A stretch of DNA of 21,898 nt from a virus (lineage: Duplodnaviria > Heunggongvirae > Uroviricota > Caudoviricetes): the IMG/VR virus record IMGVR_UViG_2718218402_000002; one strand, written 5' to 3'. The notes beneath the pieces are model-generated. The model made no database searches. It had not been told where the DNA came from and saw only the letters and a list, made by a program, of their open reading frames with translations. Each line of letters opens with the position of its first letter. The first letter of the stretch is position 1. Positions 17,185-21,898 of this stretch are shown one piece after another. A program made the translations under genes and the position numbers.

Positions 17185-17345
17185 GAGGACTTGCATACAA
17201 TCCCGGCATTCTTCCGGCAGAAATGATTATTCGCCAGCGCGTAAAGCCAATGCCATCGAGAGAGGAATTGCTTAAGAGAAATTCTTTTCCGTCAGTGAAT
17301 CAAAACAAATATCTGAATGCGATGTTGCGGAGTGGGAAAAAATGA
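17181..17345 (+). CDS. Possible small ORF (54 aa), coupled at both ends
   Basis: [36 protein letters not shown]...; ATGA overlap with the upstream gene at 17181 and with the downstream gene at 17342. Not in the track. Confidence 0.35.
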
Positions 17346-17827
17346 AACAAATGTCACTAATTGAGATGGATGGTTTTCTGAAAGGTAAATGCATCCCACG
17401 AGATTTAAAGGTTAACGAAACAAACGCTGAATATCTGGTGCGTAAATTTGCTGAAGCGGAGGCCAAGTGCGCGGCGCTGGCGGCGGAGAATGCTGGGCTG
17501 AAGTCTGAAGCTCCACTTGGTGCCATCGAGAATGGCAGAGCGTTTGCAGACCGTTTAGAGAATTACCAGTTCGAGTGTGAAGGCGGAAACCTAAACATGT
17601 GCAGTGATTGGCAGGAGTTTCGCCGTTTCTTCGAGTATTTATCTGAATGGGCAATGCATAGCCAGACAGAGCACCCAGCCACCGATGCTTTCCTGGCTGA
17701 AGTACGGGCGCAGGGTGTGGAGATGGCTATGGAGCATATGCAGTCGAGCGGTTCGTTAACATTTGGAGATTGCTACATATCACTTAACGAGTTCGCCGCA
17801 GAGCTTCGCAAAGGAGGTAACCAGTGA
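17342..17827 (+). CDS. Hypothetical protein (161 aa)
   Basis: ATG start; Ala-rich coiled-coil-like segment. Stop overlaps the next gene's GTG start. Confidence 0.55.
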
Positions 17828-18123
17828 GTGTATATCTCATTGATAAACGCCGACGTGGGCAACAAATACCACCTGTAGGAATTCCGAATCACACATGGTT
17901 TTGCGTACTTGATATCGATGGCATGGATAAGTTTGTTGACACTCGTCATTACTGCGATACCGCAACAGCTACTCCGGCGAAAGCAAAGAAAATGGCTGCT
18001 CTGATAGAAAACTGGACTCCACCTGATGGGTGGTGCAATGGGAATGATCGAGATTGGCATGAAAAAATGAAGGGCTATATCTGCGATTTCTTACGTAAAT
18101 GCAACGGCTTCAGGGTGATGTGA
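17824..18123 (+). CDS. Hypothetical protein (99 aa, GTG start)
   Basis: GTG start with a strong SD (AAGGAGGT, 5-nt spacing). Cys/Trp-rich. Confidence 0.5.
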   Translation: MSVYLIDKRRRGQQIPPVGIPNHTWFCVLDIDGMDKFVDTRHYCDTATATPAKAKKMAALIENWTPPDGWCNGNDRDWHEKMKGYICDFLRKCNGFRVM

Positions 18124-18124
18124 C

Positions 18125-18706
18125 ATGAACAAGATTGACTATCAGGCACTGCGTGAGGCAGCAGAAAAAGCAACGTGTGGTGCGTGGTCGCTCGAATATG
18201 GAGAGGAGAGATTTGATGCTGGTGATGCGCTAATTCATCGTGAAGTTGTTGGATATCTTCCCATTTGCAGAATTGAAGGAGCGCATCCTGAAAGCGGTTT
18301 CGATGAAGATTTCCAAATGGAACAGCAGGCCAATGCTGAATTCATCGCCGCAGCCAATCCGGCTACCGTGCTGGCATTACTGGATGAACTGGAAAGAAAC
18401 CAGCAATACATCAAACGCCGCGACCAGGAGAACGAGGATATTGCGCTAACGGTAGGGAAGATGCGTGTTGAGCTGGAAGGCAAAGACAGCAAAATAGCCA
18501 ATCTTACCGCCGAACGCGATGCTCTTCGTGAAGGTGAGATGGGCGACGCTAGGCATAGCAACACACGGGCCGCAGCTGATATCTACTTCCAACTGGTCGA
18601 GGAGTGCGAAATTCCTGCTGGCGGATCTCTGGTCGAGTACGTTGACGATATGCGCGAGAAGCTGGAAGCCGCAGAGAAGCGCATTGCTGAGCTGGAGTTG
18701 CGGTAG
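18125..18706 (+). CDS. Ea22-like protein
   Basis: 193 aa, MNKIDYQALREAAEKAT... with a C-terminal coiled coil; resembles the Ead/Ea22-like family of lambdoid prophages from memory. Confidence 0.5.
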   Translation: MNKIDYQALREAAEKATCGAWSLEYGEERFDAGDALIHREVVGYLPICRIEGAHPESGFDEDFQMEQQANAEFIAAANPATVLALLDELERNQQYIKRRDQENEDIALTVGKMRVELEGKDSKIANLTAERDALREGEMGDARHSNTRAAADIYFQLVEECEIPAGGSLVEYVDDMREKLEAAEKRIAELELR

Positions 18707-18855
18707 GTTGTGCTTCCGCAATGCTATAGCATGTTGCATCGCGTCGATTTTGACGAGCCTTACCACACTGAAATGGTTTACAGGCAGCATCAGGTTCTTG
18801 AGGCACTGCACAACGCTGGAATAAACGTCACCGAAGCAGGTAAAGGAGAGGCATC

Positions 18856-19362
18856 ATGAGCACTATCACAAGAGAATGGCTGCAGCAGGCTATCAACGAT
18901 TATGAAAGCGTTCGTGATGAGCTTCCTTTCGGGCTTGATGATTACCAGGGGAATATCCTGGCTGCCCTGCGTATCGCACTGGCATCGCTGGAAGCAGAGC
19001 CGGTGGCGTGGAAGGTAACATTCACGCAAATTGACCGTGAATATAACACGTTCACTGGTATGTATTCTGACAAAGCAGAAGTCGAACGGTGGGTGCGGCT
19101 GCATAAAGCATGTAATTTTCGGGCAGATATAACACCGCTTTATACCGCCAAGCCAGTGCCGGTAACTCCGGATGGTTGGATAAGCTGTAGTGAGCGAATG
19201 CCGGATAAGTTAATTCCGGTAATGGTCATGTATGAAGACGGTGAGATGTGGTCTGCAATGTGGAATGGCAATCGCTGGGATGATGGCACCGAATATCCGG
19301 ATCCGCACTCAGTTACGCACTGGCGTGAAATGCCAGCAGCACCGCAGCAGGAGGTGAAGTGA
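18856..19362 (+). CDS. DUF551-domain protein
   Basis: 168 aa, RBS AAGGAGAG. C-terminal WISCSERMPDK...VTHWREMP fits the DUF551 pattern as recalled. Confidence 0.55.
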   Translation: MSTITREWLQQAINDYESVRDELPFGLDDYQGNILAALRIALASLEAEPVAWKVTFTQIDREYNTFTGMYSDKAEVERWVRLHKACNFRADITPLYTAKPVPVTPDGWISCSERMPDKLIPVMVMYEDGEMWSAMWNGNRWDDGTEYPDPHSVTHWREMPAAPQQEVK

Positions 19363-19640
19363 TGGACTCCTTCGCGAAATATACGATTATTGACTGGATA
19401 GCATTCCTTCAGGTTTTGCTCATCTGGTTTTATATGGCTTACAGGAGTGGGCAGTGGATTGTCAGTGTAGCCTGTAGCAATGGATGGCGTTGGTGGAACC
19501 GAAAGAATAAAAAAGCACTAGCCTTGGATTCGTTTTACGAAGCATTCAATCTTAACAGCCTTCAGCCTGGTTCTGTCGTTGTAGTCCACACTCAAAGCGG
19601 CATGACCATTCAGATTCATAAACCAAAAGAGGAAAAATGA
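19362..19640 (+). CDS. Hypothetical protein with one TM helix (92 aa)
   Basis: ATG at 19362 overlaps the upstream stop; strong SD GGAGGTG. Hydrophobic segment IAFLQVLLIWFYMAY. Confidence 0.5.
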   Translation: MDSFAKYTIIDWIAFLQVLLIWFYMAYRSGQWIVSVACSNGWRWWNRKNKKALALDSFYEAFNLNSLQPGSVVVVHTQSGMTIQIHKPKEEK

Positions 19641-20454: not shown

Positions 20455-20673
20455 ATGTACTTGACACTTCAGGAGTGGAACGCACGCCAGCGACGCCCAA
20501 GAAGCCTTGAAACAGTTCGTCGATGGGTGCGCGAATGCAGGATATTCCCTCCTCCTGTTAAGGATGGAAGAGAGTATCTGTTCCACGAATCAGCGGTAAA
20601 GGTTGACTTAAATCGACCAGTAACAGGTAGCCTTTTGAAGAGGATCAGAAATGGGAAGAAGGCGAAGTCATGA
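20455..20673 (+). CDS. xis: Excisionase Xis
   Basis: 72 aa, MYLTLQEWNARQRRPRSLETVRRWVRECRIFPPPVKDGREYLF..., near-identical to lambda Xis as recalled. Overlaps the int start. Confidence 0.9.
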   Translation: MYLTLQEWNARQRRPRSLETVRRWVRECRIFPPPVKDGREYLFHESAVKVDLNRPVTGSLLKRIRNGKKAKS

Positions 20674-21724
20674 GCGCCGGGATTTACCCCCTAACCTTTA
20701 TATAAGAAACAATGGATATTACTGCTACAGGGACCCAAGGACGGGTAAAGAGTTTGGATTAGGCCGAGACAGGAGGATAGCAATCACTGAAGCAATACAG
20801 GCCAATATTGAGTTGCTATCCGGGAGCAGGCGTGAGTCACTGATAGACAGAATTAAAGGCGCTGACGCAATCACTCTTCATGCGTGGCTTGACCGATATG
20901 AAACAATCCTCAGCGAGAGGGGTATCAGGCCGAAAACTCTACTCGACTACGCCAGCAAAATCAGGGCAATCCGAAGAAAATTGCCGGACAAACCGCTCGC
21001 TGACATATCAACGAAAGAGGTGGCAGCAATGCTAAACACCTACGTAGCAGAAGGTAAAACGGCTTCCGCAAAATTAATCAGGTCAACCCTTGTTGACGTT
21101 TTTCGTGAGGCAATAGCCGAGGGGCATGTGGCTACGAATCCGGTAACAGCAACCCGCACAGCAAAGTCAGAAGTAAGGCGCTCAAGGCTGACAGCTAATG
21201 AGTATGTCGCGATTCACCATGCAGCCGAACCTCTCCCAATCTGGCTGAGGCTTGCGATGGATTTGGCCGTCGTTACAGGTCAGAGAGTCGGCGATTTGTG
21301 CAAAATGAAATGGTCAGACATAAACGACAACCATCTTCACATTGAACAGGGTAAAACAGGGGCTAAGCTCGCCATTCCGCTGACGCTAACGATTGACGCG
21401 CTCAATATCTCATTGGCTGATATACTACAGAAATGCAGGGAGGCCAGCGGCAGTGACACTATAATTGCATCAACGCATCACGAACCACTTTCCCCGAAAA
21501 CAGTATCGAAGTATTTTACAAAGGCGAGAAATGCATCTGGACTCTCATTTGATGGAGACCCGCCAACATTCCATGAACTGCGTAGCCTGTCGGCGAGACT
21601 ATACCGCAATCAGATTGGCGATAAGTTTGCTCAACGTCTTCTCGGACATAAATCAGATTCAATGGCGGCGCGGTATAGGGACAGCCGAGGGAGAGAATGG
21701 GACAAAATTGAAATCAACAAATGA
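20651..21724 (+). CDS. int: Tyrosine integrase Int (lambda family)
   Basis: 357 aa. The first ~55 aa are identical to lambda Int as recalled; the core-binding region diverges; the C-terminus (HELRSLSARLY...LLGHKSDSMAARYRD) is conserved. Confidence 0.95.
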   Translation: MGRRRSHERRDLPPNLYIRNNGYYCYRDPRTGKEFGLGRDRRIAITEAIQANIELLSGSRRESLIDRIKGADAITLHAWLDRYETILSERGIRPKTLLDYASKIRAIRRKLPDKPLADISTKEVAAMLNTYVAEGKTASAKLIRSTLVDVFREAIAEGHVATNPVTATRTAKSEVRRSRLTANEYVAIHHAAEPLPIWLRLAMDLAVVTGQRVGDLCKMKWSDINDNHLHIEQGKTGAKLAIPLTLTIDALNISLADILQKCREASGSDTIIASTHHEPLSPKTVSKYFTKARNASGLSFDGDPPTFHELRSLSARLYRNQIGDKFAQRLLGHKSDSMAARYRDSRGREWDKIEINK

Positions 21725-21775
21725 TTTTATTTTGACTAATAATGACCTACCCATGGTAATTTGTTGATAATTAAA
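21722..21775. other. attL P' arm: Int arm-type sites and IHF-like site
   Basis: TGATTTTATTTTGACTAATAATGACC aligns with the lambda P' arm (lambda TGATTTTATTTTGACTGATAGTGACC) and overlaps the int stop. TTGTTGATAATTAAAG resembles an IHF site. Similarity to lambda ends after this. Confidence 0.6.
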
Positions 21776-21808
21776 GGAATTTTAAATATGGAACTTACCT
21801 TATTTAAG

Positions 21809-21838
21809 GCCCCTTCCTCGGGAGGGGCTTTCCCGTTT
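21809..21838 (+). terminator. GC-rich hairpin with T-rich tail at the presumed phage-host junction
   Basis: GCCCCTTC-ctcg-GGGAGGGGC (8 bp, one G-U) followed by TTTCCCGTTT. May be a host terminator or part of the att core/B arm. Confidence 0.35.
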
Positions 21839-21898
21839 CAGCGTCCCGCTGAAATCGTCGGCTTACCTCCTTTCGCCCTGAATACAGTCTATCGCTAA

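Follow-up and report, generated by a model that had tools for sequence, protein, structure and literature searches.

We examined the end of a 21,898-nucleotide stretch of DNA from a virus of the Caudoviricetes (IMG/VR record IMGVR_UViG_2718218402_000002; the whole stretch is called the window here), where an integrase gene, int, is followed by 174 non-coding bases up to the window end. Positions 21718-21898 are very probably the attL (B-O-P') of a lambdoid prophage with an HK022-type site-specific recombination module that has an overlap of its own and a target in the sib/ibs repeats of Escherichia coli. A further reading, for which the balance of the evidence is about even, is that a natural HK022-type lineage switched its target solely by replacement of the 7-bp attP overlap, with the specificity of Int unchanged, to a tandem type I toxin-antitoxin small RNA (sRNA) locus, which it would rewire. 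The name attL is correct in lambda nomenclature, as P' is carried by the int-proximal junction, and what marks attL in the lambda family is found here: an adjacent Int with the R-K-H-R-H-Y residues, the P'1-P'3 and H' sites between int and the core, and a 7-bp overlap between imperfect inverted half-sites of core type. The resemblance to every HK022-type phage DNA ceases at position 21797, and the prophage boundary is fixed to the base, with phage DNA to 21797 and the crossover at 21798-21804.

A seven-base crossover segment

The att sites compared were the attL of the window, the attR of two lysogens, the empty attB of E. coli strain S1, and the attP and attB of HK022. One lysogen, MFDS1001074 (NZ_CP106929), has an identical Int and an attL that matches the window at 98.5% over 21700-21898 (199 bp); the other, strain 22-245 (NZ_AP038810), is independent and carries a complete prophage of ~49 kb. 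Aligned on the overlap (capitals) and written on the plus strand of the window, the sites read as follows, with lambda attP for comparison.

lambda attP: caactta GTATAAA aaagctg
HK022 attP: caactta TTCACCT aaaggat
HK022 attB (K-12, upstream of torS): aaccttt TTCACCT aaagtgc
window attL (21791-21811): gaactta CCTTATT taaggcc
attR, both lysogens (MFDS1001074 and 22-245): acccttt CCTTATT aaaggat
empty attB, strain S1: acccttt CCTTATT taaggcc

In the window, the core is thus divided into three segments.

21791-21797, unstranded: C' core-type half-site gaactta (caactta in HK022 and lambda), the last phage-specific bases
21798-21804, unstranded: 7-bp overlap CCTTATT, the sole segment common to attL, attR and the unoccupied attB
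21805-21811, unstranded: B core-type half-site taaggcc, where host-specific sequence begins; also seen in the unoccupied site of S1

The segment shared by phage and host is exactly 7 bp, with mismatches at both edges, and it aligns column for column with TTCACCT of HK022 and GTATAAA of lambda (elsewhere it lies at 34239-34245 of stretch L003 from NZ_CP106929, in attR, and at 705-711 of stretch L015 from S1, in attB). Beyond the core, attR continues into a P arm homologous to those of HK022 and lambda. Strand exchange by the lambda mechanism occurs at both edges of the overlap, one edge serving the top strand and the other the bottom strand. Since CCTTATT is present at both attL and attR, the overlap of attP must have been CCTTATT too, the same as that of the host.

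Read outward from the overlap, the half-sites of the sib system are C' TAAGTTC, C AAAGGAT, B TAAGGCC and B' AAAGGGT, and those of HK022 are C' TAAGTTG, C AAAGGAT, B AAAGTGC (TAAGTGC in the torS site of STEC, the E. coli that produce Shiga toxin) and B' AAAGGTT. All of these match (A/T)AAG(G/T); counted outward, their fifth base is G or T in the sib system as in HK022, and C in lambda, whose C site reads AAAGC. By this comparison, the sib attB is an HK022-type core with a different overlap. Because the overlap of HK022 is TTCACCT, a phage with CCTTATT would be unable to use the site upstream of torS.

The integrase and its arm sites

The module to the left of the core consists of the following features.

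20455-20673, plus strand: xis, excisionase of 72 amino acids, from the ATG at 20455 to the stop at 20673, with int beginning inside it
20651-21724, plus strand: int, open reading frame (ORF) for an HK022-type heterobivalent tyrosine integrase of 357 amino acids (stop codon 21722-21724)
21718-21726, minus strand: P'3 arm-type Int site AATCATTTG, 7/9 to lambda AATCATTAT and the same as in HK022, overlapping the int stop codon
21729-21737, minus strand: P'2 arm-type Int site AGTCAAAAT, identical to the P'2 of lambda and HK022
21739-21747, minus strand: P'1 arm-type Int site GGTCATTAT, 8/9 to lambda GGTCACTAT and identical to HK022
21757-21769, minus strand: integration host factor (IHF) site H' TATCAACAAATTA, a pattern match to the consensus WATCAANNNNTTR that aligns with H' of lambda and HK022

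The Int protein shares 96.4% identity with HK022 Int and 74.7% with lambda Int, a difference that is unevenly spread over its domains (lambda numbering).

Arm-binding domain (1-64): 90.6% identical to lambda, 98.4% to HK022
Core-binding domain (65-169): 68.6% identical to lambda, 99.0% to HK022
Catalytic domain (170-356): 72.7% identical to lambda, 94.1% to HK022

Residues 1-55 are identical to those of lambda Int, and all six catalytic residues (R212, K235, H308, R311, H333 and Y342) are present. Positions 99, 282, 283, 287 and 319 are the lambda-to-HK022 specificity determinants that Dorgai and Yagil reportedly found in 1995, and in the window Int they are D99, P282, K283, K287 and R319, as in HK022 and unlike lambda; R329 is present too. 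N99D together with H329R have been described as switch residues between lambda and HK022 (PMC10863862). At the DNA level, the xis-int-P' segment is 95.6% identical to that of HK022 and 94-97% identical to those of mEp235, mEp506, Gally, H19J and several Stx1a-converting phages; identity to the 434/HK97 group is only ~77%. The xis gene (219 nt) has the length and position of the annotated excisionase of HK022 and related prophages.

The sequence tgattttattttgactaataatgacct, directly 3' of the int stop codon, is the same as in HK022 and two bases off lambda, and because of this the resemblance of the arm sites to lambda is, as judged from the alignment, homology and not chance. A search of the whole window for the lambda core GCTTTTTTATACTAA, allowing up to 3 mismatches, returned one match, at 19502 (0.84 expected by chance), and none near the window end. 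Of what defines att in lambda (the core GCTTTTTTATACTAA, the overlap TTTATAC and a gal-bio flank), nothing was found at the junction. The Int residues and half-sites are those of HK022, but neither its overlap, TTCACCT (AGGTGAA), nor its attB location upstream of torS is found here.

An earlier note on this DNA, made from its letters, had described P' arm sites close to those of lambda, no lambda core downstream of them and a core-binding region of Int that is divergent, and had proposed an integrase with lambda arm recognition and another core specificity. These points stand: P'2 is identical to lambda, P'1 agrees at 8/9 and P'3 at 7/9 positions; no core was found near the window end with the mismatches allowed; and identity to lambda falls from 90.6% in the arm-binding domain to 68.6% in the core-binding domain. 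The note had suggested comparison of the latter domain with HK022 and lambda, and the identities of 99.0% and 68.6%, respectively, bear out its proposal, with 55 N-terminal residues equal to those of lambda followed by core-binding and catalytic domains of HK022 type. Lambda arms with a non-lambda core are, in themselves, the long-established HK022 case and not new. What is new is the sib/ibs target with a new overlap, the attB of HK022 itself lying elsewhere, upstream of torS.

The host target between yegL and mdtA

The right-hand side of the junction matches a known chromosomal locus.

21805-21898, unstranded: host flank from the yegL-mdtA intergenic region, where it forms the distal part of a sib/ibs repeat; assigned by identity to the S1 and MFDS1001074 flanks
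21806-21831, plus strand: GC-rich hairpin that serves as terminator for the interrupted gene of the Sib antitoxin RNA (fold of -19.8 kcal/mol, z = -2.6)

Positions 21798-21898 match the unoccupied site of S1 at 100 of 101 bases and the MFDS1001074 flank at all 101, and mdtA lies within ~350-700 bp of the junction in related genomes. In K-12, two type I toxin-antitoxin pairs, ibsA/sibA and ibsB/sibB, lie in the yegL-mdtA region. With the Rfam model SIB_RNA (RF00113), the interrupted copy at attR was matched from end to end with 142 bits (gathering threshold 56). CCTTATT corresponds to model positions 141-147, the last 7 nt (CCUUAUU), in matches of 142-150 bits, and an ibs ORF is annotated antisense to the interrupted Sib copy at attR. 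The identity of Sib was set from the intact and attR copies, as the window retains the overlap, the terminator and the distal repeat only; the Rfam scan of the window end alone gave chance-level matches below threshold (L31 leader and sok).

The annotated sibA and sibB RNAs of K-12 finish at the hairpin equivalent to 21806-21831, which a simple terminator scan did not call because its T-run is short. The crossover therefore sits between the body of the Sib RNA and its terminator hairpin. Seen from the opposite strand, CCTTATT falls within the toxin's 5' leader, 8 nt upstream of the ibs start codon, and the purine-rich AAGGAAAGGG that it overlaps is probably the ibs ribosome-binding site. The earlier note had also expected a non-lambda attB, host DNA in the last ~90 bp and a GC-rich hairpin near the end, and had advised a search for attR and the direct repeat. 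Each expectation was borne out: the flank is the yegL-mdtA sib/ibs repeat and not gal-bio, the host-matching part (overlap included) measures 101 bp, the hairpin is located at 21806-21831, and attR was found in the two related lysogens, the repeat being the 7 bp CCTTATT.

After integration, attR keeps the body of Sib and the ibs ORF with its presumed ribosome-binding site; attL keeps, beside int, the Sib terminator and all sequence upstream of ibs on the strand of ibs. From this geometry, the promoter of the minus-strand toxin gene must lie within 21805-21898. Integration would then leave the ibs ORF and ribosome-binding site at attR without a promoter of their own. It would likewise part the Sib body, at attR, from its terminator, now 82 bp downstream of int, and the Sib RNA would read into the phage P arm, to a tI-like terminator. 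A lambda tI/sib-like terminator (gcgcaaggtgatttt..cttgcgctaatttttt) is kept in the P arm (34395-34432 of L003 and ~22610-22650 of stretch L018, from NZ_AP038810); it lies ~190 nt downstream of the truncated Sib gene, on the same strand, and could end an extended Sib transcript.

Among the K-12 sib copies, sibA and sibB carry CCTTATT exactly, sibE is one base off, sibD two and sibC several. Strains differ in how many sib/ibs copies they have between yegL and mdtA, with two in K-12 and three, including the interrupted one, in MFDS1001074 (stretches compared: L003 33768-34245, L001 4099-4530 and L015 600-1100); in strain S1, an insertion sequence (IS) of the IS4 family (IS421) cuts the upstream part of the locus. 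In a further viral record, IMGVR_UViG_2648501235_000001 (L010 112-129), the attL flank stops inside the Sib terminator hairpin, between ggccccttcctcggg and ctgtctcttgatcagatct, and the new sequence looks like the inverted-repeat end of an IS or transposon that inserted just past the attL junction.

Distribution of the sib-type junction

Among 5426 complete E. coli genomes, 84 (~1.5%) have the sib-type junction, and 195 have the canonical torS-type junction. The query from int to mdtA was matched by 82 of the 84, and all 60 of the matches listed are annotated with both genes. A further ibs copy lies between the junction and mdtA in 13 genomes; therefore, two or more different repeat copies act as attB. 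The upstream copy was used in the window and in MFDS1001074, and the copy beside mdtA in 22-245. The presence of the junction in 84 genomes and at two repeat copies is indirect support, from population data, for Int-, IHF- and Xis-dependent integration and excision at the site, where Int would be active. The attL was not found in GTDB species-representative genomes in two scans.

Close phage backbones are found with both att types, sib and torS. In strain OkiPb01675, for example, identity to the window is 98.4% as far as base 21797, after which the sequence runs into torS. This suggests that phages exchange the int-att module, or the core alone. At most 62% of the window is covered by any one complete E. 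coli genome, and the prophage is therefore a mosaic. As a related observation, window positions 35-21797 are ~98% identical to NZ_AP042478 (L005) and NZ_AP038810 (L006) over the ~60% of the window that is shared.

Att DNA or enzyme as the possible source of the new target

The retargeting appears to reside in the att DNA and not in the enzyme, with no amino-acid change needed. We consider this the most economical reading because, among 13 Ints compared (six from sib-type junctions, seven from torS-type sites or attPs), D356N is the sole fixed difference that separates the two types; residue 356 is the penultimate one in Int, and its codon lies beside P'3. In the mechanism that we propose, the N-terminal domain of Int, which equals that of lambda, would bind P'1-P'3, and the HK022-type core-binding and catalytic domains would bind the (A/T)AAG(G/T) half-sites. 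Strand exchange would take place within the 7-bp CCTTATT common to phage attP and host attB, such that a new overlap between compatible half-sites would lead to integration at sib/ibs, between yegL and mdtA.

Int might instead have evolved a core specificity of its own, apart from that of HK022, and the new overlap would then account for a part of the change only. Between the window Int and HK022 Int, 13 residues differ; 11 fall in the catalytic domain, S234G beside the catalytic K235 among them. The sib B half-site taaggcc differs from HK022 B (aaagtgc) at 3 of 7 positions. Yet apart from D356N no substitution follows att type: other changes relative to HK022 (for example, S234G, S267G, K275T, D278E and N303D) are shared with torS-type phages, the Ints of the torS-type Stx1a_NIID112183 and Gally carrying G234, G267, T275, E278 and D303. 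Every new half-site base is also found in natural HK022-type half-sites, TAAGT in C' and the STEC torS B site, and AAAGG in C and B'. We therefore regard a separately evolved Int as improbable. A single aberrant insertion of a canonical HK022 attP (TTCACCT) at a secondary site, followed by vertical inheritance, is far less probable still. Secondary-site insertion is known for lambda-family integrases, and the Int is nearly identical to that of HK022, but under the lambda mechanism unequal overlaps would place the phage overlap at one junction and the host overlap at the other, and here CCTTATT is present at both attL and attR, which rules such an event out. Nor does a single insertion fit 84 genomes of varied sources, occupants that range from a 15-kb remnant to the ~49-kb prophage, the use of two repeat copies as attB, or Ints that are ~96-100% identical among five sib-type lysogens. 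There is next to no chance that the last ~100 bp still belong to the phage or that the site is an attL of lambda at gal-bio that has diverged: nothing was found in favor of this, the flank is continuous with the S1 chromosome (100/101) and homologous to K-12 sibA and sibB, mdtA is the neighbor, and no lambda core is present, so that this idea is refuted.

Several points weigh against our explanation of the junction as a whole. The attP was reconstructed from the junctions, and no free phage or contig with it was found in INPHARED, IMG/VR or two metagenome scans; the best INPHARED matches were HK022 and mEp235, at 81.5%, and a relaxed pattern in IMG/VR returned two prophage-derived copies of attL and two chance matches. 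Several occupants are degraded remnants with a truncated int. Given the difference at the B half-site, Int may have undergone a subtle, non-fixed adaptation. Finally, of the changes at the five specificity positions, N99D is the one supported, along with H329R, by PMC10863862.

Prophage content

Beside attR, where lambda has its b region, the prophages at this site carry type III secretion effector genes: espJ, nleG and cif in NZ_CP106929 (L003 34650-38600), and nleA with a DUF1076 gene in NZ_AP038810 (L018 20050-22200). The MFDS1001074 occupant is a remnant of ~15 kb with an IS66-family element inside it. In the window, a run of ORFs of 99-193 amino acids (17342-19362) lies between the recombination genes and xis, at 17342-17827, 17824-18123, 18125-18706 and 18856-19362.

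Relation to known systems and significance

The closest known system is HK022, with which the window shares the xis-int-P' layout, P'1-P'3, the C half-site aaaggat, a 7-bp overlap at the same aligned position and an Int of 96.4% identity. It differs from HK022 in the overlap (CCTTATT in place of TTCACCT), in attB (sib/ibs in place of the site upstream of torS), in one base of C', in the P' spacer from P'1 to C' (~80% identical, by eye from the alignment) and in N356 where HK022 has D356. With lambda it has in common the heterobivalent architecture, the N-terminal 55 amino acids, P'2, P'1 at 8/9 positions and H' in place, and the reconstructed attP keeps the P-arm sites and the tI-like terminator. 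Unlike lambda, it has a core-binding domain of only 68.6% identity, HK022-type residues, G/T half-sites (AAAGC in lambda), no lambda core and another host locus.

HK022 and lambda Int have been retargeted by engineering, with site-affinity mutants and with human 'attB' sites and matched attP overlaps, on the principle that the overlap may have any sequence if the two partners match (PMC7736782, PMC4846993). The sib case is alike in that a new overlap between acceptable half-sites sets a new target; unlike the engineered cases it is natural and established in the population (84 of 5426 genomes, compared with 195 of torS type). Integration of prophages at sRNA genes, such as ryeB and ryeE, is a recognized pattern according to Bobay et al., 2013 (PMC3603311). 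Here too an sRNA gene is entered at its 3' end, by the terminator hairpin, with part of the gene regenerated on one side; in contrast to those examples, sib is a type I antitoxin RNA in tandem copies, and the crossover also falls in the 5' leader of the toxin. In our literature search, which did not extend to a supplementary table of PMC3603311 that might list the site, no paper was found to describe sib/ibs, mdtA or yegL as a place of prophage attachment.

The main value of these observations lies in annotation and in the evolution of integration specificity, with a possible effect on the Ibs/Sib pair. The sib/ibs repeats between yegL and mdtA are identified as a lambdoid attachment site. An HK022 module with at least two overlap alleles for different loci, and no matching change in the protein, shows the ease of site switching and bears on HK022 Int as a programmable tool. 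If the proposed overlap-only switch is correct, it would parallel in nature what overlap reprogramming achieves by engineering, and the prophage would alter a toxin-antitoxin module of its host through its choice of attB.

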